The position numbers were made by a program, and so were the translations under genes. From the IMG/VR virus record IMGVR_UViG_3300042375_000684: a stretch of DNA of 64,000 bases. One strand, 5' to 3'. The DNA is from a virus. Position 1 is the first letter of the stretch. Every line of letters starts with the position of its first letter. The notes below the pieces were generated by a model. The model worked only from the letters and a program-made list of their open reading frames with translations. It did no database searches and was not told the DNA's origin. Positions 7,323-22,536 of the stretch are shown piece after piece.

Positions 7323-8380
7323 AGATAGCTATATTATGCGATTCACACTTTGGAATAAGATCTGATAGTAAGATATTTCTAGAACACCAAGCTAAGTTCT
7401 TTGGTAATTTGTTTTTTCCGTATTTAAAAGAATATGGTATTGATACTGTATTACATCTTGGTGATATTTTTGACCGAAGAAAGTACATTAACTTTTATAC
7501 TCTCAAGAAATCAAGAGAGTTCTTTTTTGATGAATTAAAGCGCCGCAATATTGAAATGCACACAATTCTTGGAAATCATGATACATTCTTTACAACAACA
7601 AATGAAGTTAATTCAAATGTACTTCTACTAAAAGAATATGATAACATTCATATATATGAAGATACTGTGGTTCATCTAGATTTTGGTTCAACAAAATTTG
7701 CAATGTGTCCTTGGTTGACCAAAGAGAATACAGAGACTAATATGAAAATCCTGAAGGAATCAAAGGCACACATTCTTTGCGGTCATCTCGATTTAAAAGG
7801 TTTTGAATTGATGAAAGGAATTGTCAGTGACCACGGATTTGACCATAAAGAGTTTTCGAATTTTGAAGCTGTTTATTCTGGTCACTATCATCACCAGTCT
7901 GAATACGGCAACGTCAAGTATCTTGGTGCTCAATATGAAATGAACTGGTCTGACTATGGTTGTAAAAAAGGGTTCCATGTCATTGATACTGAAACAAGAG
8001 AGTTGACATTTGTCGAAAATGATGATAGAATATATCATAAGTTAGACTATGATGATGTTGATCTAGCGATTGATGATATTGCAGCTCTTGATACATCAAT
8101 ACTAAAAAACTGTTATGTCAAAGTTATCGTAAAGAATAGAACAAATCCATATCTATATGATTTATTCCTAAATAGATTAAATGAATGTGGTGCTGCTGAT
8201 ATTAAAACAGTAGAAGATGGATTGAATTTATCTGGAATCGGTGTTGCCGAAATGTTAGAAGAAGCAAAAGACACGAAGGATATATTACATTCATATATTG
8301 ACTCAGTTGAAACAAATATCAATAAAGTTAAGATTAAAACCGTTGTTGATCAATTATACTTAGAAGCAATGAATATTTGA
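7319..8380 (+). CDS. gp47: recombination endonuclease subunit gp47 (Mre11/SbcD-like)
   Basis: Metallophosphoesterase motifs DSHFG, HLGDIFD, GNHD and SGHYH. Confidence 0.95.
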   Translation: MKIAILCDSHFGIRSDSKIFLEHQAKFFGNLFFPYLKEYGIDTVLHLGDIFDRRKYINFYTLKKSREFFFDELKRRNIEMHTILGNHDTFFTTTNEVNSNVLLLKEYDNIHIYEDTVVHLDFGSTKFAMCPWLTKENTETNMKILKESKAHILCGHLDLKGFELMKGIVSDHGFDHKEFSNFEAVYSGHYHHQSEYGNVKYLGAQYEMNWSDYGCKKGFHVIDTETRELTFVENDDRIYHKLDYDDVDLAIDDIAALDTSILKNCYVKVIVKNRTNPYLYDLFLNRLNECGAADIKTVEDGLNLSGIGVAEMLEEAKDTKDILHSYIDSVETNINKVKIKTVVDQLYLEAMNI

Positions 8381-8443
8381 AATTAAAATCAACTATTCAT
8401 TCTTTTTGCATTAATAATGCAAATATAGCGCAGTGAGGACTTA

Positions 8444-10156
8444 ATGCACATACAATTCAATAAAGTTAGATATAAAAATATTATGTCTGTCGGAAATCAA
8501 TTCATAGAAATTGATTTGGTTAGATCTAAAACAACTCTCATTAGTGGTGCAAATGGAACCTCAAAGTCAACTTTCATCGAAGCTGTTGTTTTTGCCCTCT
8601 ATGGAAGGCCATTTAGAAAAATTAACAAGCCACAATTAGTCAATAGTATTAATCAAAAAGAGTTACTTGTTGAACTTGAATTTTCCATTGCAGCAGATAA
8701 GTATCTAATCAGACGCGGAATGAAACCAAATATATTTGAAATTTGGAAAAATAATGATCTTGTAAATAAAGATGCAGCAACAAGAGACTATCAAGAATAT
8801 TTGGAACAGAATATTATCAAGATGAGTTTCAAGTCATTCTCTCAAATTGTTATCCTTGGAAGCGCAACATATGTTCCTTTCATGGAACTTCCAGCCGGTC
8901 AGAGAAGAGAAATCATCGAGGATCTTTTGGATATCCAGGTATTCAGCACAATGAATATTCTATTGAAAGAGAAAATTGCCGATAATAAGACAAATATCAT
9001 GGACAATAATTATTCTATTGATCTTTTGAAAACCAAAATTGAATCTGCAAAAGAACATAATGAGGAAATTCAACGGATCAAAGAAACAGAAGTTGAAAAG
9101 ATCAAAGGTAAAATTGAAGAAAATCTGAATACAATAGAGGTTGAAAAACAAGTAATTGAAACACTGGAAACTGAAATTACTGAACTATCATTATTGATTA
9201 CAGATAAAGCAAAACAGAAGAAAACTTTAGAACAAGCTAAAAATCTTCTATATGAACTAACATCAAAGTATAAAACACACATTGATGAAATTTCATTTTA
9301 TTCAAATCACGATAATTGCCCAACTTGTAAACAAGGTATTGAACATCTATTCAAAGAACATATTGTATCGGAGAAATCAGATAAAAATACAGAGTTACTT
9401 GGTGGGATTGACAAACTAAAGACTCGTATAGAAACTGTTGAAACTCGTTTGTCTGAAATTTCCGATGTTGAAGATAAAATTCAAAAACAACACAATACAG
9501 CAAATGGGCATCGGGTTCAAGTAAAGATTATGATCAATCAGTTAAAATCATTCAAGAAAGAACTTGAAGGTGCTGAACGAGAAGTAGAAGAAATTGACCA
9601 AACAAAGATACTTGAGTTTATGAATGACCTGAAAAAGAAACAAGAAGAACAGACGGAACTATACGAGAACCGTGAAACTCTCGGTATTGTTGGAACAATG
9701 TTAAAAGATGGTGGAATCAAGACGAGTATCATAAAAACATATATTCCTATCATGAATAAATTGATTAATCAGTTTCTATCAGAGTTCGAACTTTTTGTTG
9801 ATTTTAACCTGGATGAAAACTTTAATGAAACTATCAAGTCACGGTTTCGCGATGCATTCTCCTTTGCTTCATTCTCCGAAGGTGAAAAAATGCGCATTTC
9901 ACTCAGCATCATGTTTACATGGAGAGCTATTGCCAAACTAAGAAACTCAGTGTCAACAAATCTACTTATCATGGATGAAACACTTGATGGCCCATCTGAT
10001 GCTGATGGTGTTGAATCATTGATTGATATTCTCCACAAGATGAACGGAAATGACAACATCTTTATCATCTCACACAGAGGTCAACAATTCTCCGAAAAGT
10101 TCGATGATCACATTCGGTTTGAAAAGGTGAAAAACTTCACGCAAATTGCAGCTTGA
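8444..10156 (+). CDS. gp46: recombination ATPase subunit gp46 (Rad50/SbcC-like)
   Basis: Walker A GANGTSKST, zinc hook CPTC, signature FSEGEKMR, Walker B LIMDE. Confidence 0.95.
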   Translation: MHIQFNKVRYKNIMSVGNQFIEIDLVRSKTTLISGANGTSKSTFIEAVVFALYGRPFRKINKPQLVNSINQKELLVELEFSIAADKYLIRRGMKPNIFEIWKNNDLVNKDAATRDYQEYLEQNIIKMSFKSFSQIVILGSATYVPFMELPAGQRREIIEDLLDIQVFSTMNILLKEKIADNKTNIMDNNYSIDLLKTKIESAKEHNEEIQRIKETEVEKIKGKIEENLNTIEVEKQVIETLETEITELSLLITDKAKQKKTLEQAKNLLYELTSKYKTHIDEISFYSNHDNCPTCKQGIEHLFKEHIVSEKSDKNTELLGGIDKLKTRIETVETRLSEISDVEDKIQKQHNTANGHRVQVKIMINQLKSFKKELEGAEREVEEIDQTKILEFMNDLKKKQEEQTELYENRETLGIVGTMLKDGGIKTSIIKTYIPIMNKLINQFLSEFELFVDFNLDENFNETIKSRFRDAFSFASFSEGEKMRISLSIMFTWRAIAKLRNSVSTNLLIMDETLDGPSDADGVESLIDILHKMNGNDNIFIISHRGQQFSEKFDDHIRFEKVKNFTQIAA

Positions 10157-10218: not shown

Positions 10219-12756
10219 ATGTCTTCATTCTATACATCTGTTGAACGCAGCGGTAACATGATTTTATGGCGGGGCTATGAAAATAACCGCCGCTTTTCTC
10301 GTAAGATTAAATATGAACCATCGTTGTTTATTCCAACTAAAGAGGACACGAAATATAAATCTTTGGTCGGAGACCATTCTATAAAACCAAAACAGTTTGA
10401 TACTATGAATGATGCAAAAGATTATGTTGAACGATATAAAGAGGTATCAAACTTTCAGGTTTATGGTAATACAAACTTTGTTCAACAATTCATTCAGGAA
10501 AAATATCCGAGTGAAATTGACTTTGACATGAACCAGATCAATATCTTTTCGTTTGACATAGAAGTTGATATTTCCAAAAAACTTCCAGACATGGAAACTG
10601 CTGATAATGAAATCACTTCTATTGCTATTAAATCATCTAAATCAGATACATATCATCTTCTTGGCCGTAAAGGCTATGACAAGACCAAGACACTGTCTGG
10701 TATTGACCCAGACAATATCCAATTCATGGAATTTGATACCGAAAAGGCTCTACTGAACCGCTTCATCCAAATCTGGACAAATGACTTTCCAGATATTGTG
10801 ACCGGATGGAACGTGGAATACTTCGACATTTATTACATCATCACTCGGATCATCCGTTTGTTCGGTGAGGAAAAGGCCAAAGAACTTTCACCCTGGGGCT
10901 ACATCCGAAAAGTCACAACTGAAATCTTCAATCGTAATCAATCAACATACAATATCTCTGGTGTCAATATCATTGACTATATGGATGCATTCAAGAAGTT
11001 CGGTTACAAATATGGCACACAAGAGACATACAAACTAGATCATATTGCACACGTTGTTCTCGGCAAAAAGAAACTTGATTACTCTCACTATGGTTCATTG
11101 ACCGAACTATACAATCAAAACCCACAACTTTACCTTGACTATAACCTAATCGACACTCAACTTATCCAGTTGATGGAAGACGAAACGGCACTCCTTGCTC
11201 TTGTTTTGACTGTTGCATATGGTGGTGGTGTCAACTATTCCGACGCATTCGGAACCGTTGGTATCTGGGAATCAATCCTTTATCGTAAACTAATGACCAA
11301 AAACTTGGTCCCACCCGTTAAATCAGGTCCAGGTGAAAAACTTGGTGAACTTGTTGGTGGTTATGTAAAGGACCCTGACACTGGTCTGAAAGAATGGATC
11401 GTATCTTTCGACCTTAACTCACTGTATCCTCACCTGATGCTCCAATACAACATGTCACCTGAAACTTATATTCCGGACCAACGTGAATATATTTCACAGG
11501 AAATGGTTCTAAATAATGAATATAGGAATGCAAATCCAGATTATTCGGTCTGTGCAAATGGTGTATGTTTTACCAATAAGAAACTTGGCATCATTCCAGA
11601 AATCATTCAAGAATATTATAGTAATCGTAAAAAGATTAAAACCGAAATGCTTCGTATTGAACAGCTTGAACAGGATACAAGTGATCCTGTAAAGAAAAAA
11701 GAATACAAGAAGCAAATAACACAATTACATAATGCGCAAATGGCTATTAAAATTGCTATGAACAGCTTGTATGGTGCAACCGCTAATCGTTACTTCCTAT
11801 ACTATATCTCTGAAATGGCCGAGGCTATCACAACATCTGGTCAACTTTCAATTCGGTATTCACAGAAATCTATAAATGATTATTTAAATTCTGTTTTGAA
11901 AACTGATAATAAAGATTACGTCTCATATGTTGACACTGACTCTAACTATGTGAATATGGCCCCACTTGTTGAAAAGATATTTGGAACTACAAAGATTACA
12001 CGTGAACAAGGTGAAAAGTTCCTTGATGCAGTTTCAAAGGAAAAACTAGAACCTGCCATCCAAGAGGGTTATGAAAAACTTGCATGGATGATGGGTGCAT
12101 ACCGTAATGCAATGTCCATGAAACGTGAAAAGATTACGGACAAGACTATCTTTATTGCCAAGAAGCGCTATATCATGAATGTTTTAAACTCTGAAGGCGT
12201 TCACTATGCAAAACCAAAAATTGCAGTTACAGGTGTTGAATCTGTTCGGTCTTCTACTCCAGAAGTCTGCCGAAATAAAATGGAAGATGCATTCAAAGTG
12301 TTCTTGAACGGAACCGAAACTGATGCACAGGATTTTATTGAAGGTTTCCGTCGTGAATTTTCATCACTTCCCGCCGCAGAAGTTGCTAAGACATCTGGAA
12401 CCGATGATATCGGCAAATTCATGGACAAGCAAGGTTGGTATACAAAAGGTTGTCCAATTCACGTCCGAGGCGCGATACTTTACAATAAGTATCTTTCCGA
12501 TAAAGATCTAAATAACAAATATGAAACAATCAGATCAGGTGATAAAGTAAAATTTGTTTATTTGAAACTTCCCAACCCCGTCCGTGAAAATGTGATTGCA
12601 TTTCCTGGATATCTTCCAACTGAACTCGGTATTGACCGATATGTGGATTATGACACACAATTCGATAAGGTATTCTTGAAACCTCTCGAAATCGTGCTGC
12701 ATGCAATGGGTTGGACTTCCAAAAAAGTTGACACGCTTGAAAGTTTTTTTGGTTGA
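10219..12756 (+). CDS. gp43: family B DNA polymerase gp43
   Basis: Exonuclease motifs FDIEV, GWNVEYFD and YNLID; polymerase motifs SFDLNSLYP, KIAMNSLYG and YVDTDS; unsplit, no intein. Confidence 0.97.
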   Translation: MSSFYTSVERSGNMILWRGYENNRRFSRKIKYEPSLFIPTKEDTKYKSLVGDHSIKPKQFDTMNDAKDYVERYKEVSNFQVYGNTNFVQQFIQEKYPSEIDFDMNQINIFSFDIEVDISKKLPDMETADNEITSIAIKSSKSDTYHLLGRKGYDKTKTLSGIDPDNIQFMEFDTEKALLNRFIQIWTNDFPDIVTGWNVEYFDIYYIITRIIRLFGEEKAKELSPWGYIRKVTTEIFNRNQSTYNISGVNIIDYMDAFKKFGYKYGTQETYKLDHIAHVVLGKKKLDYSHYGSLTELYNQNPQLYLDYNLIDTQLIQLMEDETALLALVLTVAYGGGVNYSDAFGTVGIWESILYRKLMTKNLVPPVKSGPGEKLGELVGGYVKDPDTGLKEWIVSFDLNSLYPHLMLQYNMSPETYIPDQREYISQEMVLNNEYRNANPDYSVCANGVCFTNKKLGIIPEIIQEYYSNRKKIKTEMLRIEQLEQDTSDPVKKKEYKKQITQLHNAQMAIKIAMNSLYGATANRYFLYYISEMAEAITTSGQLSIRYSQKSINDYLNSVLKTDNKDYVSYVDTDSNYVNMAPLVEKIFGTTKITREQGEKFLDAVSKEKLEPAIQEGYEKLAWMMGAYRNAMSMKREKITDKTIFIAKKRYIMNVLNSEGVHYAKPKIAVTGVESVRSSTPEVCRNKMEDAFKVFLNGTETDAQDFIEGFRREFSSLPAAEVAKTSGTDDIGKFMDKQGWYTKGCPIHVRGAILYNKYLSDKDLNNKYETIRSGDKVKFVYLKLPNPVRENVIAFPGYLPTELGIDRYVDYDTQFDKVFLKPLEIVLHAMGWTSKKVDTLESFFG

Positions 12757-12780
12757 CATATGCATAACTTGTGTTAAAGT
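12753..12780 (+). promoter_or_regulatory. sigma70-type promoter heading the glycosylation island
   Basis: TTGACA-16 nt-TAAAGT with an extended TG. Confidence 0.6.
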
Positions 12781-12811: not shown

Positions 12812-13129
12812 ATGAAAGAACAAGTCAGGGATACTTCAAAAGACTATGATGATATGGTCGATTATGTAGCCGAAGAAAATATCAATAAAGGATCATTAAA
12901 TGAGTTTCTTGGTGAAACACCAAAAGAATATAAACCAGAAGTCAAGAAAAAAGAACGTGATAATGAATTTCCAGAAGATTGGCAGAGACTAATGGTAAAC
13001 TTTCATTCCGAAAAAGACTATATTGAGTTTATGAACAAAATCGGAAGTAAACCTGTTCCGAAATTAAAGGGGTTTATCTATGAAACACCAGGTGAAAAAT
13101 CAGCATTTTCTGACTTCTTTGGAGATTAA
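12812..13129 (+). CDS. TAGT-associated small protein A
   Basis: Core WQRLMVNFHSEKDYIEFMNKIGSK is paralogous to the next ORF; directly upstream of the TAGT gene. Confidence 0.7.
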   Translation: MKEQVRDTSKDYDDMVDYVAEENINKGSLNEFLGETPKEYKPEVKKKERDNEFPEDWQRLMVNFHSEKDYIEFMNKIGSKPVPKLKGFIYETPGEKSAFSDFFGD

Positions 13130-13131
13130 AT

Positions 13132-13455
13132 ATGAGCACATTAATTGAAATTAATACAGTAGAAGAATTACAAAATCACTGGCGCGATCATTATCTTCAA
13201 TGGTGGGCTGCAGGCATGCCGAGTTTTAGACAACCATCCAAAGACCCGTGGAAACAAATTGTAATTAAATTTAAGAATAAAGAAGATCGTGAACATTTTG
13301 GACAATTATTCGGATACAAATTGACAGATCGAACTGATGTGGTATCATATCCAGATAGACCGCGCGATCCAAATATGATGAGTCGATATGTTGAAGAAGG
13401 ATATGAACAAGATAAAATTGAAGGAATTAGTGAAGATGACGACACAGATGAATGA
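13132..13455 (+). CDS. TAGT-associated small protein B
   Basis: WWAAGMPSFRQ...WKQIVIKFKNKEDREHFGQLFGYKLTDRT..VSYP, a pattern I recall next to phage TAGT genes. Confidence 0.7.
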   Translation: MSTLIEINTVEELQNHWRDHYLQWWAAGMPSFRQPSKDPWKQIVIKFKNKEDREHFGQLFGYKLTDRTDVVSYPDRPRDPNMMSRYVEEGYEQDKIEGISEDDDTDE

Positions 13456-14392
13456 TAATCCTCGATACCCCATCTATGTGATATCGAAAGGCCGCTGGGA
13501 ATCAAGACACACAGCAAGAACTCTGGACAAGATGGGTGTTCCGTATTATCTTGCTGTTGAACCACAAGAATATGATAACTATGTAAATGCAGTGGGCAAA
13601 GAAAAAGTTTTGGCTCTACCTTTCAGCAACCATGGGCTAGGTTCTGGACCTGCTAGAAATTGGTGTTGGGAACATTCAAAGGCAACTGGTTTCAAGCGGC
13701 ATTGGCTTATGGATGATAATATGCTCGACTTCTATCGTCTACATAATAACAAGCGTTACCGCGTAGATAAAGGTTCCGCAATTTTCCGTGCCGCAGAAGA
13801 TTTTGTTGATCGGTTTGAAAATATTGCACTTTCAGGTTTTCAATACAAATTCTTTGCAATTGATGATTGTGCATACCCTCCATATATTTTAAATACACGC
13901 ATAATGTCTTGTTTCCTTATTGATAATGACTGCCCTGTAATGTGGCGCGGTAAGTATAATGAAGACGTTGATCTTTCAATTAGAGTTTTGAAAGAAGGTC
14001 TTTGCACTATGTTATTCTATTCGTTCCTTTGTGGGAAACTCCGGACTGGTACGGTTAAAGGTGGTAATACTACCGAAATCTATAACAACTATCAGGAAGA
14101 TGCATCATATAATAAGTCCAAGATGCTTTATGAAATGCATCCAGACTGTGTTGAACTTGTAGAAAAATATGGTAGAGCACACCACCATGTAAACCTTGAT
14201 AAAATCATAAATAAGTTCGGCCAACCTGCTAGACAAAATGTTCCAATCTTGAAAAAAGATGTTGACATAGTCAATAAAGTAGATAATTATGGTATGGAAT
14301 TATACCGTAACTATGGGTCAAATAACACATTTTCAGATCCTACATTCAGTTTAAATGAATACCCCAAGGGGAGACTTTCTAATCATGCATAA
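13448..14392 (+). CDS. TAGT/GREB1-like GT-A glycosyltransferase (JGT-related)
   Basis: [31 protein letters not shown] and [11 protein letters not shown]...GGNT. Confidence 0.82.
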
Positions 14393-15242
14393 TATTCTTG
14401 TCACAGGTGGTGCTGGTTTTGTCGGCAGCCACCTGTGTGAACGTCTTGTATCACTGGGGCATAATGTTACATCACTTGATAATTATTTTACTGGCTCAAG
14501 TGATAATCATATTTCGGGTGTAACTTATATTAACGGAAGTACTGAAGATATACTGTCTTTACTTTACAGTGAAACTTTTGAATATGTTTATCACCTTGGT
14601 GAATATTCACGAGTAGAACAATCATTTGATGATATGGAACTTGTATGGAATTTTAATAAAGTAGGAACATATGAAGTTCTTAAATATGTAAAACAATGTA
14701 ATGCAAAATTAATTTATGCTGGTTCATCAACCAAATTTGCAAAAGTTGATGTTATAAGTCCATATCAATGGTCGAAAGCATCCAATACAGATTTTGTAAA
14801 TCAATATTGTTCATGGCATTCTATTGACTATGCTATTACGTATTTCTATAATGTTTATGGTAAACGTGAAATCAAAGACGGAAAATATGCTACACTTATT
14901 GCTAAATACAAGTCATTAATGAAACAAGGCAAAAAACTTCCTATTGTAATGCCAGGTATCCAACAGAGAAATTTTACACACATTGATGATATTGTCGATG
15001 CTTTAATTCTTGTTGGTTTCGGTGGACAAGGCGACGAATACGGTATTGGAAATCCAAATTCGTATTCAATTCAAGAAGTTGCCGAAATGTTTGGTGGTGA
15101 AATTGAATATTTACCAGAACGAAAAGGTAATCGCCTAAGTGCAGAGGTTAAGAGTGAAAAAACTATAGAATTGGGGTGGAAACCTCAGAAAGAATTAACT
15201 AAATATATCGAATTGTTAAAATATAATGGATGGTGTGACTAA
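14385..15242 (+). CDS. NAD-dependent NDP-sugar epimerase/dehydratase (extended SDR)
   Basis: [14 protein letters not shown], catalytic YQWSK, YNVYG and RNFTHIDD. Confidence 0.9.
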
Positions 15243-15243
15243 T

Positions 15244-16089
15244 ATGAAAAAGTTAAGAATGGCTATTGTGGGGCACGGGTTTGTCGGTGCAGCAGTAGAT
15301 TATGGGTTTCCGAATGGTAACTGTAATAAAACAATCATTGATCCGAAATATGGAACTCAAGTCTCTGATTTAATGGAATCTGATGTTGAAGTGTCATTTG
15401 TTTGTGTTCCAACTCCGATGGGGCAAGATGCAAGCATTGATGCTTCAATTCTAGTTTCTACTGTAACTGATTTGCTTGCATACACGTCTGGTATGATTGT
15501 GATTAAATCAACAGTCATTCCGAGTATTGTCGGTGAACTTGCAAAAGATCCAAGAGTCATTTACAATCCAGAATTTTTGACCGAAAAGTCTGCAAATGAA
15601 GATTTTGTCAATCCGATCATGCACGTGTTCGGTGGAGATTCTGAACAAACAGAAAAACTTGAAAAGATCTACACTAGATATAGTGCATGTAAACCATGTG
15701 CTGTTTACCACATGACCGCCGAAGAAGCAAGTTTTGTCAAATATGGTATGAATTCATTTTTAATGACAAAGGTATTATTTTTCAACCAACTTTTTGATTT
15801 AATTGAAAAGAACGGTTCTAATTTTAGTATTATACAAAAGGCAATCACTACGGATCCTAGGATAGGCAGTTCACATACTATGGTACCTGGACATGACGGT
15901 CGCAAAGGTGCCGCGGGGGCATGTTTTGCAAAAGACGGACCTGCATTTGTTATGTATGCAAAAAAAGAAAAAAACCACTTTACTATATTAGAAGAAGTTA
16001 TAAGAACAAATCAAAAATATAGAAATTCTTATGGTGAGCCTCTACCAAGAGAGAAAGAACAACATATTAATTTCAATTATGATATCTGA
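15244..16089 (+). CDS. UDP-glucose/GDP-mannose 6-dehydrogenase family protein (short form)
   Basis: GHGFVG, FVCVPTP, IKSTV, YNPEFL, AEEASFVKY..NSF and catalytic GACFAKD; appears to lack the usual C-terminal domain. Confidence 0.9.
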   Translation: MKKLRMAIVGHGFVGAAVDYGFPNGNCNKTIIDPKYGTQVSDLMESDVEVSFVCVPTPMGQDASIDASILVSTVTDLLAYTSGMIVIKSTVIPSIVGELAKDPRVIYNPEFLTEKSANEDFVNPIMHVFGGDSEQTEKLEKIYTRYSACKPCAVYHMTAEEASFVKYGMNSFLMTKVLFFNQLFDLIEKNGSNFSIIQKAITTDPRIGSSHTMVPGHDGRKGAAGACFAKDGPAFVMYAKKEKNHFTILEEVIRTNQKYRNSYGEPLPREKEQHINFNYDI

Positions 16090-17111
16090 TCTTTCGCAAT
16101 TACGGAAAAACCTATTTCTCTATAGGTTTTTCCCACTATATTATTAAAAAAATTAGTTTGCAAGAAAATACTATTCCTATAAACTCTCAATGATATTTTT
16201 CTATCACATTTTATGCACCATGTTTTCATTTTTTCACGAGAAATACCCATATCTATTAAACTTGATGCAGAATCAAATATTCCTATGGGTGTTGAATAAA
16301 AATACTTATGTTTATGATGATTTATCCCAGACATTTTTTCGGAAATTTTATCTTTAGTTTCATTTGATACTATTTTTCCTTTCTGTGATTTAGACATTTT
16401 TTCTCTAGTTTCATCAGACCTTTTTAGACCAAGTTGCCCCTTTCCTATATTTTCTTTATGAGTTTCCGAAAGTAATCTGCCTGTTAATGCTTTCCTAACT
16501 TTTTCTGTGTGCTCACTGCTTTTCTTTTTACCTCGTAAACCAGAGGATATATTATTTTTATGAGCTGTTGTTTTGCGTACTCCTTTACTTGTATTTGAAA
16601 TTTTGTGTTTATGATCATCCTTTAATGATATACCTTTTAAAATTGGAATATAATTGCCGTTTAGATAATTGTGATCGTCTATATTTGATTTAAAATATAT
16701 CTCTGGATTATTTTTGTCATATACAACAACTTTATTTTTGTTTCTTTTAGAAATATTTGTTACTGCTTCTACTCTAAGTTTATCGTAAATTCTGGAGTTC
16801 ATAAATGTTTTTCTCCTGCATTTCATACCCCATATTGCATCTACACAAGAATAACTTTTTGGATAAGCTTTCCAAAGTAATAAGTGTGCAATAAAATGTT
16901 GGCGATGTGTTAAAAATGCTTTATTCCAAGGATAAATTAAAAATGATTTATATTCTGGAAACATGTCATTTGCTTTCGGGCAAATATGGTGTTTTTCAAT
17001 ATTACCATTATAATTAGTATTTTTAAGTTGACATTTTTGAATAAATGTTATATACTTATTCAAATAATGTGAATTGTGCGGCTTACTTGCCAAAATGGAA
17101 TAAATATCCAT
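16077..17111 (-). mobile_element. free-standing HNH homing endonuclease with NUMOD3 repeats
   Basis: EKHHICPK...LTHRQHFIAHLLLWK HNH-type core; tandem H..KIS...G / ETREKMSKSQKG NUMOD3-like repeats; inverted relative to the operon; very AT-rich. Confidence 0.85.
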
Positions 17112-17176
17112 GCTGCGTTCCTTTTAAAATTATCAACGTAGAGTAGATGGGACTGGTACTCCGTGATCTACACTAT

Positions 17177-17184
17177 TATTTATA
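17177..17184 (-). promoter_or_regulatory. late promoter for the homing endonuclease
   Basis: TATAAATA on the minus strand ~65 nt upstream of the ATG. Confidence 0.75.
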
Positions 17185-17229
17185 AAGTTGTTTACCTAAA
17201 GACAAATATATCATGAGTGAGGTTTGACT

Positions 17230-17556
17230 ATGACATCTGAAAATTTCAATAACTTAACACCAGCAGAAACAGAACGGCTTGCTATGCTTGCCGAAGAGTG
17301 CGCAGAAGTAATCCAAGTAGTAGGAAAAATACTTCGGCATGGCTATGACAGTAGTAATCCTACAATACCGAAAGAACACGGTGTTTTTATTCCTACCAAC
17401 TTTGGTGATCTCATCAAAGAGTTAAGAGACATACAAGGTGTTATCTATGGCATGGTTCAAGCACGTGACTTGCCACGTGACTTTCTTGAAAATGAAGAAC
17501 CAGAAAATGTATGGCAAAAGAAACTAAAATGGACTCACCACCAGGATAAAAATTAA
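17230..17556 (+). CDS. MazG-like NTP pyrophosphohydrolase 1
   Basis: LAEECAEVIQ..GKILRHG...ELRD all-alpha NTP-PPase motif. Confidence 0.7.
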   Translation: MTSENFNNLTPAETERLAMLAEECAEVIQVVGKILRHGYDSSNPTIPKEHGVFIPTNFGDLIKELRDIQGVIYGMVQARDLPRDFLENEEPENVWQKKLKWTHHQDKN

Positions 17557-18047
17557 TGCCAAAAGTTAATTCAAAATGGGATGCTCGGTTCATGAAATTA
17601 GCCCGAGAAATTTCAACATGGTCTAAAGATCCAAGCTCAAAGATTGGTGCAGTCATTGTCAATGACGAGCGCAGAATACTTGCCACTGGTTACAACGGGT
17701 TTCCAAAAGGTATTGAAGATACCGAAGAGAGATTAAATGACCGTGAACAAAAGTATCCTAGAATTGTGCACGCAGAAATGAACTCATTGATGCATGCGCT
17801 ACACAGTGGTGTGTCGGTAAAAGGTGCTACAATTTATGTTTATGGACTTCCAGTCTGCCCTGAATGTACAAAATCTATAATTCAAGCTGGTATTAAAAGA
17901 GTTGTCATGTCACCAGATCCATATGTCTATATCACACCATGGACAGAAAAGTGGGATAAAGTTTCAAAACAAATGATTGTAGAAGTCGGTGACATTGGCA
18001 TTACATATACAAATTCAGATAAATTGGATTGGACAGTGAATGGCTAA
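17556..18047 (+). CDS. dCMP deaminase
   Basis: SKDPSSKIGAVI, GYNGFP, HAEMN and PVCPEC zinc ligands. Confidence 0.92.
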   Translation: MPKVNSKWDARFMKLAREISTWSKDPSSKIGAVIVNDERRILATGYNGFPKGIEDTEERLNDREQKYPRIVHAEMNSLMHALHSGVSVKGATIYVYGLPVCPECTKSIIQAGIKRVVMSPDPYVYITPWTEKWDKVSKQMIVEVGDIGITYTNSDKLDWTVNG

Positions 18048-18687
18048 AAATCTCAAAGATATATACGTCGGTGTGAAAAAAGATGATGAAAATCGGAATG
18101 AAAATGATCTTTATCCAACACCGCCAATAGCAACATATATACTTCAGAAATATGTTGATTTACCGAAGAATATTATTGAACCATGTGCTGGGCGCGGTAA
18201 TATTTCTATTGAACTAATTCGGAATGGGTTTAATGTTAAATCATTCGATATGCACGAATATCCAGATCAATTATGTTCTATTCAAACTGGACAAGATGTT
18301 TTAACTCTTCCAAAACAAGTTGATTATGATGCTTTTGTGACAAATCCACCATATTTTCAGGATTTACCTCGTAAAATAGCAGAAAAGGGTGTGTCCGAAT
18401 ATGCAGTGACCGCTTTATTTGTTCGTTTGACATATCTAGAAGGCAAAAAACGAAATAAACTATTTACAAAAAATGTTCCAAGTGATATAATTATCCTCTC
18501 GGATCGTATTAGATTTGGAGCCGGGTATCCTGAAGCTATAAATAAAAATGAGCAACTTGGCGGTATGATTGCATATATGTGGATTATTTGGGATAAACGG
18601 AAAGATAATTCATCTACAAAACTTCGTTGGGTTCTTTTAGAAGATGAATATGATGAATGGAGACAACATTATGAGGATACTAAATGA
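18040..18687 (+). CDS. DNA amino-methyltransferase (N6-adenine or N4-cytosine)
   Basis: DLYPTP, SAM motif IEPCAGRG, catalytic TNPPY. Confidence 0.8.
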   Translation: MAKNLKDIYVGVKKDDENRNENDLYPTPPIATYILQKYVDLPKNIIEPCAGRGNISIELIRNGFNVKSFDMHEYPDQLCSIQTGQDVLTLPKQVDYDAFVTNPPYFQDLPRKIAEKGVSEYAVTALFVRLTYLEGKKRNKLFTKNVPSDIIILSDRIRFGAGYPEAINKNEQLGGMIAYMWIIWDKRKDNSSTKLRWVLLEDEYDEWRQHYEDTK

Positions 18688-19757
18688 CTAAAATTGTAAT
18701 GCCTTTCTTAATGAATGATGAAAACGATTTAGATTCACCAAGAGTTTCTGGCGGACTAGAACGATTCTCGCAGTTTATTTACAAATATGCAAATGCGGAA
18801 GTAATTCCGTTCTATTATAACCGAGATGATCGCAAAAATAGAACTGTAACGCCAAAGTTACTTGCATTTATACATAACCATAAACCTGACCTTGTTATTT
18901 CAAATCAAGATTCGGGAACTATTACAACTAATATCCAAAAAATGGTTGATGTACCTATGATGTGGATATCACATACAGCATCTGGTGGTATTTTTAAAAT
19001 CCCTCAACTTGATATGATGAAAGAGTTTGTCGACAACGGTGGTACTCTTGCTATGGTTAGTCAATGGCAATATGATGGTATGAATGATCTGTCCAAGAGA
19101 GTTCGGAGCAGAGAACTTGAATTAAATGGTGGTCTAATTAATTCTGCATTCTGCAATGGAGATGAACAAGTTTCTATGCAGATTGATTATGATTGTGTCA
19201 CCATTGGCAGAGTTGACAAGGAAAAAGATCCATTTCTTTTACATAAACTTGCAGGTAAGAGTGACTTGAAATCATTGGTTCTTACCTCTGCGTATGAATT
19301 ACTTCCAGTTCAACAAGAATACCTTGACAAGAATAACCATTGGGAAAGCCCAAAGGAAACCATGTTTAATCTAAAACACGTCGAAGTTATGGATCACCTA
19401 TCAAGATCTGGTGTTTATCTTTCCACTTGTGCCAGAGAGACCTGGGGTATTACTGCACTTGAAGCATTTGCTCGTGGTGTACCAGTAGTTTTATTCAGAA
19501 TTGGCGCTAATAAAAACAAACACGCTTCTGAGGATATTGCACCAGGACCAGAGTATTTTGAAGCAATGACTAATAAAACTGAGAAGGACTTCAAATTAGC
19601 AGTTGACAAATTACTAAAAGTTGATAGAATGGAACTATCACAAAAGACCAAAGAGAAACATTCCAAAGAAAATTGGGTGCAAACTCTTAATAATCTTATT
19701 GATAAAGCAATCGAAAATAAAAAGCAACATCAGAAACCTGTATCATGGTTTGATTAA
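18684..19757 (+). CDS. GT-B fold glycosyltransferase (GT4-like)
   Basis: SGGLER, IGRVDKEKD and the EX7E motif ETWGITALEAFARGVPVV. Confidence 0.88.
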   Translation: MTKIVMPFLMNDENDLDSPRVSGGLERFSQFIYKYANAEVIPFYYNRDDRKNRTVTPKLLAFIHNHKPDLVISNQDSGTITTNIQKMVDVPMMWISHTASGGIFKIPQLDMMKEFVDNGGTLAMVSQWQYDGMNDLSKRVRSRELELNGGLINSAFCNGDEQVSMQIDYDCVTIGRVDKEKDPFLLHKLAGKSDLKSLVLTSAYELLPVQQEYLDKNNHWESPKETMFNLKHVEVMDHLSRSGVYLSTCARETWGITALEAFARGVPVVLFRIGANKNKHASEDIAPGPEYFEAMTNKTEKDFKLAVDKLLKVDRMELSQKTKEKHSKENWVQTLNNLIDKAIENKKQHQKPVSWFD

Positions 19758-19768
19758 GAAAGTATATT

Positions 19769-20404
19769 ATGAAATTAATCTTTATAGATTTTGAAACAAT
19801 GGGCGATGATGTGCTCGAACCTTGTGCCGCAGTAGACATGGCTATACTTGTCGCCGATACGGATAAAATGTTGTCTGACAATCCTTATTCTTGTAGAGAC
19901 GTTACCCTTTCAAAGAAGTTTAAATTGTCAGTGAAAGATCAAGTCACGAATTATGGGTTTATTGTCCAAGATACTGCGCTTAAATTTTGGCAAGAAGTAT
20001 CACCAGAAGCTCGTAAACATGTCAAACCTTCCCCCGATGATCTTACCGTAGATCAGTTTATCAATCAACTGATTACACATATGAATACAATTGGTAAGTT
20101 TGACTATTGGTTCTCACGTGGTAATACTTTTGATCCAATTATTCTCCAAAGACTATTTAAAGTAGTTGGCAAAACTTACACCTTTAAGGAATATTTCCGA
20201 TTTAATAGAGTGCAAGATATGCGAACTCATATTAATGCTAAATTGAATAATCCCGTTACTACAAATATTACCCCAATCCAAGACGAAGAATTTTGGAAAT
20301 CAGTTTTTGTAGAGCACGACAGCGCGTGGGATATTCTTGCCGATATGCTGCGGTATCAAACAATCCTTAGACTAGAAAATGATTTAGAACAACCGAAAAG
20401 GTGA
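19769..20404 (+). CDS. dexA: DexA-like DEDDh 3'-5' exonuclease
   Basis: FIDFETMG, WFSRGNTFDPIIL, QDMRT and HDSAWD. Confidence 0.75.
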   Translation: MKLIFIDFETMGDDVLEPCAAVDMAILVADTDKMLSDNPYSCRDVTLSKKFKLSVKDQVTNYGFIVQDTALKFWQEVSPEARKHVKPSPDDLTVDQFINQLITHMNTIGKFDYWFSRGNTFDPIILQRLFKVVGKTYTFKEYFRFNRVQDMRTHINAKLNNPVTTNITPIQDEEFWKSVFVEHDSAWDILADMLRYQTILRLENDLEQPKR

Positions 20405-20407
20405 TAA

Positions 20408-21274
20408 ATGAAACTTGAAATAACTACAGAAGACTTACGAAAGTATTCCATATTCCTCGGCACTCCTATGTATGGAGGTAATTGCGCAGGTCTTTTTTGT
20501 AAATCTACAAATGATCTTTTTAAACTTTGTGCTACACATGGAATTGAGGTTAAAGAATATTTTCTTTTTAACGAGAGTTTAGTTCAACGTGCAAGAAATT
20601 ATGTTGTTGATGAATTTTTGCGATCAGATTGTACACATTTGATGTTTGTTGATGCTGATATTGGATTTAATCCTAAAGATGTATTAATGCTATTAGCACT
20701 GCAAATATCAGATCCGGTAAAATATCAGATTGTTACTGGTCCATATCCTAAGAAAACAATTGCATGGGAAAAAGTAAAATCTGCTGTTAAAAATGGCAAA
20801 GCAGAAAATCCTTCCGATCTTGCCTTTTATTCTGCAGATTATGTATTTAATCCTGCAAGAGAAGTTCAATCATTTAAAATTGACGAGCCAGTTGAAGTTG
20901 CCGAAGGTGGTACTGGGTTTATGCTTATTCCTAGAACTGTGCTAGAAAAATATTCTGCAGCATATCCAGAGTATAGTTATAAACCAGACCATGTAAGATC
21001 TGAAAATTTTAACGGTGATAGAGAAATCACTGCATTCTTTGATTGTGGAATTGATCCAGAAACAAAGCGGTATCTATCTGAGGATTATTTCTTCTGTAAA
21101 AATGCTCGTAAGATAGGTATTACAATTCATATGTGTCCATGGATGCAATTACAACATGTTGGAACTTATGTCTTCCGCGGCTCGATGGCAGCAATCGCAT
21201 CTATTGGAGCGTCTCCTACAGCAGGAGCCGATGCAAAAGCAAAGAAAAAGAATAAATTAGGGACAAGACCATGA
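20408..21274 (+). CDS. GT-A-like putative glycosyltransferase
   Basis: IFLGTPMYGG, ESLVQRARN, THLMFVDADIGF, GTGFMLI and YLSEDYFFC. Confidence 0.78.
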   Translation: MKLEITTEDLRKYSIFLGTPMYGGNCAGLFCKSTNDLFKLCATHGIEVKEYFLFNESLVQRARNYVVDEFLRSDCTHLMFVDADIGFNPKDVLMLLALQISDPVKYQIVTGPYPKKTIAWEKVKSAVKNGKAENPSDLAFYSADYVFNPAREVQSFKIDEPVEVAEGGTGFMLIPRTVLEKYSAAYPEYSYKPDHVRSENFNGDREITAFFDCGIDPETKRYLSEDYFFCKNARKIGITIHMCPWMQLQHVGTYVFRGSMAAIASIGASPTAGADAKAKKKNKLGTRP

Positions 21275-21615
21275 CAGACTCATTTTTGACACAACTACGA
21301 CAAAAGAATAATCAGCGCCAGACTATGTGGACTGGCGCTGAAAATGTTGATATTTTATTTCGAGCAGTAGAATTTGCTGGTGAAGCGGGTGAACTTGCAA
21401 ATGCCGTAAAGAAAGTTTATAGAGCACGGAATGGGATTATCGGCAATAACAAAGACATTAATGATCTTATGGAAAATCTAGTCGAGGAAATTGGTGATGT
21501 TCTCATCACTATCGACTTGCTTGCAAATGAATTTAACATCGACCTAGAGCAAGCGGTCAAGTCAAAGTTTAACAAAACATCCGAAAAAGTCAGTATTCCA
21601 GTATTTCTGGAGTAA
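21271..21615 (+). CDS. MazG-like NTP pyrophosphohydrolase 2
   Basis: GEAGELANAVKK...EEIGDVL...IDLEQAV..KF. Confidence 0.85.
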   Translation: MTDSFLTQLRQKNNQRQTMWTGAENVDILFRAVEFAGEAGELANAVKKVYRARNGIIGNNKDINDLMENLVEEIGDVLITIDLLANEFNIDLEQAVKSKFNKTSEKVSIPVFLE

Positions 21616-21649: not shown

Positions 21650-21685
21650 CAATCTATTATATGACACTCATTGAAAGGAATTACT

Positions 21686-22348
21686 ATGAAATTTTCTGAA
21701 CGCACACTCACAGTTCTCAAGAATTTTGCGACAATTAACCCATCCATTATCTTTAAACCCGGCAAACAACTGCGCACTATCAGTCCACAAAAGACTGTAA
21801 TGGCTATTGCAAATATTGAGGACGAGATTCCTTCAGAAGCCTGTGTTTATGACATGTCTCGTTTCCTATCTACTTATGGACTATTCGGTGAACCAGATGT
21901 TCAATTTGAAAGTAATCATTTCACGATGGCTCAAGGTAAAACAAAGACCCGATATTACTTTGCTGACAAATCTATGATTATCGCCCCGCCAGAAAAAGAA
22001 ATCACTATTCCATCCAATGATGTTGAAGTTGAAATTGACTGGAATGATCTTCAATCTGTAATTAAAGCTGCTGGTGTTCTTCAACTACCAGAAGTTGCAT
22101 TCGTTGGTGATGGCGATACTTGTTCACTGAAGGCAATCGACTCAAATAATACAACTGCTGATACTTTCGGTGTGGAACTTGGTTCCACTGGTGATAAATT
22201 TCAATTGATTATCAAGACTGAAAATCTGAAACTAATTCCGCAGAAGTATAAGGTTACACTATGCTCAAAAGGTATTTCAAAGTTTGTATGTGATCAAGTT
22301 ACATACTTCATTGCTATTGAATCCAAATCAACATACAAGAAAGGCTAA
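21686..22348 (+). CDS. gp45: sliding clamp gp45
   Basis: MKFSERTLTVLKNFATINPSI; AIESKS C-terminus. Confidence 0.93.
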   Translation: MKFSERTLTVLKNFATINPSIIFKPGKQLRTISPQKTVMAIANIEDEIPSEACVYDMSRFLSTYGLFGEPDVQFESNHFTMAQGKTKTRYYFADKSMIIAPPEKEITIPSNDVEVEIDWNDLQSVIKAAGVLQLPEVAFVGDGDTCSLKAIDSNNTTADTFGVELGSTGDKFQLIIKTENLKLIPQKYKVTLCSKGISKFVCDQVTYFIAIESKSTYKKG

Positions 22349-22350
22349 TA

Positions 22351-22536
22351 ATGGAAACAAATATTAATTTAAGTGATATGATTACTATGGTAAATATCAT
22401 TGATGCTTGCACAGAACGTGGGGCATTCAAAGGTAACGAGTTGATAACTGTAGGAACACTACGTGAAAAAATTGCAAATTTTGTTCGTGAAAATCAATCA
22501 CAACAAGAACCTGTTACTAAGGAAAGTGCTGAATAA
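22351..22536 (+). CDS. small hypothetical protein
   Basis: IIDACTERGAFKGNEL..VG.LR motif, recalled as typical of this position in T4-like phages. Confidence 0.65.
   Translation: METNINLSDMITMVNIIDACTERGAFKGNELITVGTLREKIANFVRENQSQQEPVTKESAE

Follow-up and report, generated by a model that had tools for sequence, protein, structure and literature searches.

A TAGT-family gene cluster between the polymerase and sliding clamp genes of a divergent T4-like phage is a candidate replisome-tethered glycosylation module

In T-even phages, 5hmC is made via gp42 and receives its first glucose from a GT-B enzyme. The TAGT enzymes of T2 and T6 then add a second glucose to glucosyl-5hmC, and the phage TAGTs of reported activity all act on DNA (PMC13216743, PMC13390438). 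According to PMC13216743, which cites Sommer 2004 on this point, T4 alpha-GT co-purifies with gp45. The Straboviridae-type arabinosyl-5-hydroxycytosine systems of RB69 and DLP3 combine several DNA glycosyltransferases with their own nucleotide-sugar supply and build mono- to trisaccharides; their acceptor, 5hoC, comes from a ThyA homologue with D169N (Lee et al. 2026, PMC13326640). In metaviromes, subclass II clusters consist of a C5-MTase, a 5mYOX/TET enzyme, a GT and an epimerase and act on 5hmC from the MTase and TET steps; gp45/clamp neighbourhoods and hexuronic-acid products on DNA were also reported (Pyle et al., bioRxiv 10.1101/2023.12.21.572611). Two observations were left unexplained: approximately 65% of metavirome GT contigs have no neighbouring 5mYOX or ThyS (bioRxiv 10.1101/2023.12.21.572611), and a 2026 survey found a solitary TAGT, with no alpha- or beta-GT, in 288 of 753 GT-encoding phage genomes.

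Here we describe a cluster in a 64,000-nucleotide stretch of viral DNA (the window), which had originally been predicted to encode an undescribed DNA hyperglycosylation system. The word "undescribed" has to be given up, since published work already describes phage pairs of a GT and an epimerase by which hexoses, and even hexuronic acid, are put onto 5hmC (bioRxiv 10.1101/2023.12.21.572611). As in subclass II, a GT-A enzyme lies beside an SDR epimerase, but the present cluster has no C5-MTase and no TET. It also differs from the RB69/DLP3 systems in transferase families, in sugar pathway and in the lack of a ThyA homologue (PMC13326640).

The genome carrying the cluster belongs to a divergent T4-like phage, and the cluster (12812-21615; plus strand unless noted) sits inside the DNA-replication genes. 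It is flanked by the gp43 DNA polymerase gene (10219-12756; Pfam DNA_pol_B and exonuclease domain) and the gene of the gp45 sliding clamp (21671-22348; PF09116, E = 4e-14), the proposed docking platform. This neighbourhood matches that of the T4 map, in which b-gt and gene 42 adjoin gene 43 and a-gt adjoins genes 46/47; the T2/T6 TAGT likewise lies in a T4-type replication/recombination gene block. HMM and PHROGs searches matched each gene listed in the original prediction: the TAGT, SDR, UGD-like, dCMP deaminase (17556-18047; PF00383, E = 2e-22), GT-B, DexA-like 3'-5' exonuclease (19769-20404; PF16473, E = 3e-11; phrog_255), MazG, MTase and second GT-A genes. Both predicted MazG-like NTP pyrophosphohydrolases exist (17224-17556; phrog_4856, E = 5e-14; and 21271-21615; PF03819, E = 2.6e-7), but the second falls just past position 21274, where the block had been thought to end. 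Similarly, the block, described as co-oriented from gp43 to gp45, is only partly so, because an HNH/NUMOD3 homing endonuclease gene (16077-17111; phrog_655, E = 6e-32) lies on the minus strand; the other cluster genes are co-oriented. This gene is a mobile insertion outside the glycosylation system and is missing from the corresponding site in the related loci L001, L002 and L092. A consensus scan revealed a sigma70-like promoter candidate (12753-12780; TTGACA-N16-TAAAGT with TG) just 5' of the first cluster gene, sA. No late TATAAATA motif was found ahead of sA in the motif scan, which located TATAAATA on the minus strand at 17177-17184, on the homing endonuclease side.

The TAGT-family enzyme (13388-14392) scored 156.7 bits against PF20691 (cut-off, 27.5; E = 1e-45), covering profile positions 1 to 205 of 205, and matched phrog_842 (E = 2e-50). 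It thus shares its Pfam family with the T2/T6 beta-glucosyl-HMC-alpha-glucosyltransferase, and also the GT-A fold: an AF2 model of a fused TAGT orthologue adopts this fold, with Foldseek matches to GT-A enzymes at a probability of 1.0. The closest PDB match of the model is the nucleoside glycosyltransferase AvpGT (9jn3). The acidic metal-binding motifs DDN and NEDVD are retained in every TAGT row of the alignment. In Pfam scans, no cluster protein matched the T4 alpha- or beta-glucosyltransferase families (PF11440 and PF09198). The locus differs from those of T-even phages in having neither gp42 nor an alpha/beta-GT; it further differs from T2/T6 in its accessory domains, separate or fused, and in its own sugar-tailoring genes.

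The accessory domains are encoded by sA (105 aa; 12812-13129) and sB (107 aa; 13132-13455), the latter overlapping the TAGT start. They share a beta-alpha-beta core, and sB carries a W-x-x-G-M-P-x-F motif and an acidic tail. That the two small proteins are paralogues, as proposed before, was borne out as a weak relationship (hhalign probability, 66%; E = 5.6e-5 over 37 columns). In 5 of the 16 related loci with mapped ORFs (L044, L045, L038, L053 and L054), sB and TAGT are fused in a single ORF of 408 to 416 aa. Metagenomic proteins also join an sB-type domain to TAGT (P0001, P0002, P0136 and P0154), and P0154 contains two sA/sB-type repeats and TAGT in one chain. The TAGTs of Aeromonas phage 65 and Vibrio phage Kuja have N-terminal extensions that resemble sB, at the motif level only (BLASTP E = 0.025 to 0.054). 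We conclude that sB is a TAGT accessory domain.

The C terminus of T4 gp43 (...SLDFLFG) ends in DFLFG, its established gp45-binding tail. The window gp43 ends in ...DTLESFFG, the reference here for a clamp-binding tail in this phage, and sA ends in ...SAFSDFFGD, a hydrophobic/acidic gp43-type tail as looked for in gp45 clients. This tail is kept in all 16 sA orthologues (34 to 89% identity), and most sA-type cluster representatives end in ..F[FL]GD. Of the 67 ORFs of the window, only gp43 and sA fit the tail pattern, for which the probability of a match by a random tail is 0.001 to 0.007; both figures are to be read with the pattern having been set in part after sA was seen. On the basis of its sequence, we propose that sA is a sliding-clamp docking adaptor. 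T4 alpha-GT docks on gp45 itself, and sA would have the equivalent role here. The sB-TAGT fusion in relatives and the gp43-like tail on sA are the new elements of this locus. Since gp45 also serves late transcription, clamp docking alone is no proof of a DNA substrate.

Two sugar-tailoring genes follow TAGT. The first product is an extended SDR of type 1 (14355-15242; Pfam Epimerase, E = 2e-34), whose best PDB matches are UXS1 (5e-25) and then GalE. The S-Y-K triad is present, but the UXS1 Glu120 position is occupied by Thr in a GSSTKF motif that is conserved in 13 type-1 SDR orthologues. The extended SDR assignment stood, but the glutamate typical of decarboxylases and dehydratases is absent. 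A UDP-glucuronate decarboxylase of the UXS/ArnA type is not supported, given this Thr, so that UDP-xylose, and with it the predicted pentose donor from a UXS-type step, is unsupported. The SDR is probably an NDP-sugar 4-epimerase or reductase. In the nearest relatives, a GalE-like SDR that is only 25% identical occupies the corresponding position.

The second product is a short UGD-like NAD-dependent dehydrogenase (15226-16089; PF03721 and PF00984). It has in common with UDP-glucose 6-dehydrogenase (TIGR03026; PDB 3gg2) the NAD-binding domain and the central domain with the Cys motif GGxCFxKD, here GACFAKD within a (G)xCFxKD pattern; its NAD-binding motif is GHGFVG. The Cys motif is present in 15 of 15 orthologues and GxGxxG in 13 of 15. 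In contrast to TIGR03026, the phage family wholly lacks the C-terminal UDP-sugar-binding domain: PF03720 had no match in the window protein and was absent from all 15 orthologues checked, in which 31 to 53 residues follow the catalytic Cys motif. Furthermore, the two-domain architecture is shared by all 120 matches listed (228 to 298 aa, nearly all 270 to 298), and the window protein scored 121 bits against TIGR03026 (NCBIfam), under the cut-off of 189.8. The protein is natively short, consisting of the N-terminal and central domains, and the predicted UDP-glucose dehydrogenase is not supported as a conventional enzyme with the three-domain architecture of UDP-glucose/GDP-mannose 6-dehydrogenases; the NAD-binding and catalytic Cys motifs are kept. 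Because the UDP-binding domain is missing, donor synthesis by this protein is uncertain. An anionic sugar has a precedent in the hexuronic acid on DNA reported by Pyle et al.

The GT4-type GT-B enzyme (18684-19757; PF00534, Glycos_transf_1, E = 5e-8) scored 33 bits (cut-off, 26.4) and has the expected EX7E motif (E-TWGITAL-E in the translation). It is preceded by an amino-methyltransferase gene (18040-18687; phrog_799 DNA methyltransferase, E = 7.5e-38), whose translation contains an NPPY and an AdoMet motif. The second GT-A (20408-21274; phrog_1574, E = 4e-59) has a Lys-rich C-terminal tail and an invariant D82-x-D84; mean column identity is 62%. Its AF2 model (pLDDT, 80) agrees with the predicted GT-A fold, and Foldseek matched it to GT-A enzymes at a probability of 1.0.

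We compared the cluster with 70 related IMG/VR loci and mapped ORFs in 16 of them. The core order sA-sB-TAGT-SDR(-short UGD)...GT-A-gp45 was seen in approximately 60 of the 70 loci, with TAGT identities of 64 to 93%, so that the gene order cannot be put down to chance. The long-form TAGTs of unrelated phages are likewise surrounded by helicase, polymerase and MTase genes. In contrast to the core, the GT-B, MTase and both MazG genes are accessory and confined to the closest relatives: GT-B homologues occur only in L001, L002 and L092-L093, the first MazG only in L001, L002 and L056, and the second only in L001, L002 and L092. The second GT-A, a lineage-conserved gene, is also encoded by phages without TAGT and may therefore belong to another process. 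With GT-B restricted in this way and the second GT-A present in TAGT-less phages, the prediction that up to three transferases act in one pathway is not supported in that form.

The original prediction had stated that no TET/JBP, dCMP hydroxymethylase or thymidylate-synthase homologue is present in the window. This was confirmed and strengthened for TET/JBP and ThyA-type enzymes: neither the window nor 1.19 Mb of related loci (for ThyA, by tblastn) nor the 77%-complete relative G001 yielded a ThyA-type hydroxymethylase or TET/JBP, and five relative contigs had no match to PF12851 (TET/JBP) or PF00303 (ThyA). Thus, no hydroxylated-pyrimidine enzyme was detected near TAGT in the DNA searched, in which the usual acceptor pathway is missing; only ThyX was found there, along with SHMT. 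The pathway is likewise missing from cultured phages with a long-form TAGT: Aeromonas phage 65 has only td, adjoining frd, and in Vibrio phage 1.124.O neither a ThyA-type hydroxymethylase nor TET/JBP was found.

On balance, these results favor an early-expressed, replisome-tethered glycosylation module that most likely acts on phage DNA during synthesis. The TAGT membership, the early replication block, the sB-TAGT fusion and the clamp-type tail of sA make nucleic acid-directed glycosylation, as originally predicted, the best reading, and the module is somewhat more probably than not a variant of phage DNA glycosylation. In such a module, sB would be seated on the TAGT-family GT-A enzyme, and sA, the other copy of the small accessory domain, would dock on gp45 through the same tail that docks the polymerase on the clamp. 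In this way the transferase would reach nascent DNA, a route reported for T4 alpha-GT, and newly made DNA would most likely be decorated with sugars. Tailoring of the sugar, either on the nucleotide-sugar donor or after transfer, may be the task of the SDR (an epimerase or reductase by type) and of the short UGD-like enzyme. A part in attaching or starting additional sugars may fall to the conserved GT-A downstream and, in the closest relatives, also to GT-B.

Alternatively, the locus could hold two systems, with the phrog_1574 GT-A as the older, lineage-wide enzyme, possibly the first DNA glycosyltransferase, and the TAGT/SDR/UGD-like block as an insertion acquired later, which would extend or diversify what that enzyme makes, much as the second-sugar enzyme of T6, its TAGT, extends alpha-glucosyl-5hmC (PMC13216743). 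Homologues of the second GT-A (50 to 56% identical) indeed lie at the same place upstream of gp45 in Cr30 and DLP6, with further homologues in phiM12/phiN3, and TAGT had no match in Cr30, DLP6 or phiM12-type phages. Moreover, no ThyA homologue was found in DLP6, whose DNA is listed as restriction-enzyme resistant in a review table (PMC8228603). However, this resistance may have another cause, phrog_1574 has no known activity, and the TAGT carriers Aeromonas phage 65 and Vibrio phage 1.124.O showed no match to the second GT-A. We consider this arrangement unlikely.

Still less probable is that the TAGT module targets a protein, either one at the replisome or at the transcription complex or, in host takeover, one of the host, with the clamp tail only localizing the module. 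GREB1, which is TAGT-like, O-GlcNAcylates a protein (PMC7968844), and the absence of a hydroxylated-base pathway from the DNA searched is in line with such a target. Structurally, the second GT-A comes closest to protein O-glycosyltransferases such as ppGalNAc-T and LH3/ColGalT1, but at low TM-scores (0.42 to 0.46), and its Foldseek matches are generic GT-A. Against a protein target stand the DNA substrates of the characterized phage TAGTs and the nucleoside glycosyltransferase as top match of the TAGT model; furthermore, a dedicated supply of tailored sugar would be unusual for regulatory protein modification. A supply of virion or host-surface glycans (fibres, capsid or host envelope) by the SDR, UGD-like, GT-B and GT-A enzymes, with TAGT incidental, is very improbable: although the relative G001 (169.7 kb) has numerous other GT genes along with a sulfotransferase and FkbM methyltransferases, the cluster lies in the early replication block and no late promoter precedes it, sA has a clamp-type tail, and the members found most constantly are TAGT, sA and sB, with the sugar enzymes directly behind them in one coupled block.

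Glycosylation of phage DNA at the fork thus remains our preferred reading. Its fullest form, which we offer tentatively and rate as rather doubtful, is that an abundant uncultivated marine T4-like lineage glycosylates its DNA on an acceptor from no known ThyA/TET route (a new hydroxylated base or a canonical base directly), that a dedicated clamp-binding adaptor brings the transferase to the fork, and that the UGD-like enzyme possibly oxidizes the DNA-attached sugar. The window offers a concrete, conserved example of a TAGT with no ThyA homologue and no TET/JBP found in the DNA searched. It also offers an entry point for tests, an accessory domain in two pieces, of which one copy is TAGT-fused in relatives and the other bears the polymerase's clamp-binding tail. 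If the reading is true, it would show an adaptor that couples a DNA-modifying enzyme to the replication fork, and it would direct mass spectrometry to possible new acceptor chemistry in Aeromonas phage 65, Aeh1, Vibrio phage 1.124.O, DLP6 and Cr30. DNA modifications of this kind matter for the evasion of restriction and CRISPR and for sequencing bias in marine viromes.

HMM scans bore out the gene list of the original prediction for the interval between gp43 (10219-12756) and gp45 (21671-22348), which holds 13 genes on the plus strand and one on the minus strand. Following the genes of two small paralogous proteins, sA (12812-13129) and sB (13132-13455), the plus-strand genes include those of a TAGT glycosyltransferase (GT-A; PF20691, E 1e-45; 13388-14392), an extended SDR (14355-15242), a UDPG_MGDP_dh-type dehydrogenase (UGD-like; 15226-16089), two MazG-like enzymes (17224-17556 and 21271-21615), a dCMP deaminase (17556-18047), an NPPY methyltransferase (18040-18687), a GT4-type GT-B (18684-19757), a DexA-like exonuclease (19769-20404) and a second GT-A (20408-21274). 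The predicted co-orientation applies to these 13 genes and not to an HNH/NUMOD3 homing endonuclease gene (HEG; 16077-17111, minus strand), which had been missed. The HEG lies between the UGD-like gene, whose 3' end it overlaps by 13 nt, and the first MazG gene. A late-type TATAAATA motif is located upstream of it (17177-17184, minus strand). The HEG is missing from this site in the nearest relatives, and one of them (L092) carries a different HEG after regA. In the window, 15 TATAAATA matches were found versus 9.6 expected; one at 18537-18544 (plus strand), within the methyltransferase gene and approximately 140 nt 5' of the GT-B start, could be a GT-B late promoter or a chance match. The gp45/gp44 interval contains a 61-aa ORF (22351-22536, plus strand) that had no family match and is conserved in relatives; it is present in L092, and its counterpart in G001, a 169.7-kb relative, is 44% identical. 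The source is a divergent T4-like phage. No polymerase of the phage collection exceeds 43% identity to the window gp43, those of cyanomyophages come closest, and a search of this collection gave no near DNA match to the region.

The C-terminal end of sA (...SAFSDFFGD) is similar to that of the window gp43 (...DTLESFFG) and to the T4 gp43 end ...SLDFLFG, the established gp45 clamp-binding tail known from the RB69 peptide-clamp structure. This tail was kept in 16/16 sA orthologues (34 to 89% identity) and in most sA-type representatives of metagenomic protein clusters. Among the 67 window ORFs, only gp43 and sA matched the tail pattern. A clamp-like tail was also seen in two more proteins, from G001; both are encoded in a late glycan operon and were rejected as probable chance matches. 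The predicted gp45-sA complex reached a median score of 0.27, with the mark at 0.32, which weighs neither for nor against binding. Copurification of T4 alpha-GT with gp45 is mentioned in PMC13216743. On these grounds, we read sA as a putative clamp-docking adaptor and sB as a putative enzyme-side domain.

The two small proteins have a common beta-alpha-beta core (hhalign probability 66%, E 5.6e-5). In several loci, and also in metagenomic proteins, sB is fused to TAGT in a single ORF of 408 to 416 aa. A joint sA and sB profile retrieved 1703 cluster representatives, mostly stand-alone proteins of approximately 100 aa. Some were tandem repeats, some were fused N-terminally to TAGT (P0154 consists of two repeats plus TAGT), and in others the domain was C-terminal to a weakly ParB_N-like domain. 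The link to ParB_N-fused proteins comes from two sub-threshold Pfam hits and is only a lead. Aeromonas phage 65 and Vibrio phage Kuja have TAGTs with an N-terminal extension, in which the W-x-G-M-P motif of sB recurs. The sB domain is a low-confidence part of the AF2 model, and its structural neighbors in the Atlas all had a TM of <0.5.

The best solved relatives of the SDR were human UXS1, followed by GalE enzymes. Where UXS has a Glu adjoining its catalytic Thr, the aligned SDR residue is Thr, within a conserved GSSTKF motif. Since this Glu is shared by decarboxylases and 4,6-dehydratases, the SDR is more likely an epimerase or reductase than a UDP-xylose synthase, and the pentose donor proposed originally is not supported. 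The assignment as a conventional UDP-glucose dehydrogenase was not supported either: the UGD-like protein retains the NAD-binding and catalytic Cys motifs, but its score is below the NCBIfam cutoff, and only two domains are present in it and in all 120 listed homologues. It ends 31 to 53 residues after the Cys motif (15/15 orthologues). Truncation by the HEG was rejected, as the protein is equally short in relatives that lack this insertion. The enzyme may oxidize either UDP-glucose or another primary alcohol, e.g., that of a DNA-attached sugar.

Taken together, we consider a replisome-tethered module that glycosylates phage DNA the most likely mechanism, at somewhat better than an even chance. 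The module would be coexpressed with the replication genes: a sigma70-like promoter candidate (12753-12780) is located upstream of sA, and no late promoter was found ahead of this gene. The sA/sB/TAGT assembly would ride gp45 and glycosylate nascent DNA, and the SDR and the UGD-like enzyme would tailor the transferred sugar. Glycan initiation or extension may fall to the second GT-A and the GT-B. On the T4 map, b-gt and 42 are located beside 43, and a-gt is beside 46/47, which is the neighborhood of the window module.

In a variant of this model, two separate systems would exist, with the second GT-A acting independently or first; we regard this as unlikely. No Pfam family matched the second GT-A. 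Its DxD is invariant, and the AF2 model (pLDDT 80) matches GT-A enzymes. Caulobacter phage Cr30 and Stenotrophomonas phage DLP6 encode homologues with 50 to 56% identity at the corresponding place on the map, upstream of gp45, and others were found in Sinorhizobium phiM12/phiN3-type phages and Pelagibacter phage records. None of these phages or records gave a TAGT match; therefore, the phrog_1574 gene is an older, lineage-wide one and need not belong to the TAGT pathway. Furthermore, the GT-B and the second MazG were confined to the nearest relatives (L001, L002, and L092). The idea that up to three transferases act jointly thus lost ground. DLP6 DNA is listed as restriction-enzyme resistant in a review table (PMC8228603), and we found no ThyA homologue in this phage; the combination is suggestive and unexplained. 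In the 17 aligned clade members, a Lys-rich C-terminal tail follows a conserved G-A-S-x-T-A-D in the second GT-A (the Cr30 and DLP6 homologues end in ...KNKK and ...GSKK), and it may serve in nucleic acid or membrane binding.

An IMG/VR scan with the TAGT protein as the query yielded 70 loci. Mapping of the window proteins revealed a recurring order: (gp46/)gp43, sA, sB, TAGT, SDR, often the short UGD-like gene, sometimes dCMP deaminase or DexA, and then the phrog_1574 GT-A, gp45, gp44, gp62, and regA. The methyltransferase and the first MazG were present in L001, L002, L092, and a few more loci. The SDR position is occupied by two unrelated types. The closest relatives (TAGT 90 to 93% identical) have a GalE-like SDR with 25% identity to the window SDR (L001:10962-11978 and L092:9043-9999), and the window type recurs in more distant loci (57 to 72% identity). 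At this position, the sugar-tailoring step has been exchanged as a cassette. In relatives, variable extra genes within or beside the block (L045:8940-9722; L056:4113-4757; L003:13371-13796 and 14443-14871; L028:2701-3831 and 8315-9550) encode an APS-kinase-like P-loop kinase (between sA and sB), an FkbM methyltransferase, PRA-PH/MazG, MazZ-like dGTP_diPhyd_N domains, IMPDH/GMP-reductase, and a GT4. A second TAGT paralogue is also among the extra tailoring genes located within the block.

The original prediction had also noted that TET/JBP and thymidylate synthase homologues are absent from the window. Indeed, neither the window and 1.19 Mb of related loci nor five relative contigs, including G001 (77% complete), yielded a TET/JBP gene or one of the ThyA family. 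G001 does include a nucleotide metabolism block with NrdAB, ThyX, and SHMT. Pfam and PHROG scans of approximately 40 early-region G001 ORFs revealed no base hydroxylase; they gave SHMT, ThyX, NrdAB, primase, ligase, PTOX, bilin reductase, methyltransferases, and more GTs. A P4H-type 2OG oxygenase beside uvsY in G001 was rejected as the acceptor maker, since it is missing from that position in the window. Cultured phages with a long-form TAGT show the same gap: Aeromonas phage 65 has only td, adjoining frd, and neither ThyA nor TET was found in Vibrio phage 1.124.O. Aeromonas phage Aeh1 likewise combines a long-form TAGT with the lack of a hydroxymethylase. The palindromes CATG (115 versus 176 expected), CCGG (42 versus 77), GTAC, and TCGA are rarer than expected in the window. 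Since T4 (positions 1 to 50000), with its glucosyl-5hmC DNA, shows this to about the same degree, palindrome avoidance was discarded as a proxy for unprotected DNA. Glycosylation of proteins instead of DNA is, in our estimation, quite improbable. The supply of glycans for virions or the host surface is less probable still. Besides SHMT and ThyX, G001 (L078-L079; e.g., L078:4065-5210 and 10842-11423; L079:17854-18597) specifies a PTOX-like alternative oxidase, a ferredoxin-dependent bilin reductase, several more GTs, a sulfotransferase, and FkbM methyltransferases, a marine auxiliary-gene repertoire.

Returning to replisome-tethered DNA glycosylation, the system cannot be called undescribed as such: GT-A/TAGT phage DNA glycosylation with partner epimerases, including hexuronic acid products, has been published (bioRxiv 10.1101/2023.12.21.572611), as have multisugar systems that provide their own nucleotide sugars (PMC13326640). 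In contrast to the published systems, no known acceptor pathway was found for the window module (window, 1.19 Mb of related loci, and G001). It further differs from them by its short dehydrogenase family, by a split or fused accessory domain with a polymerase-like clamp tail, and by belonging to a widespread uncultivated T4-like clade.
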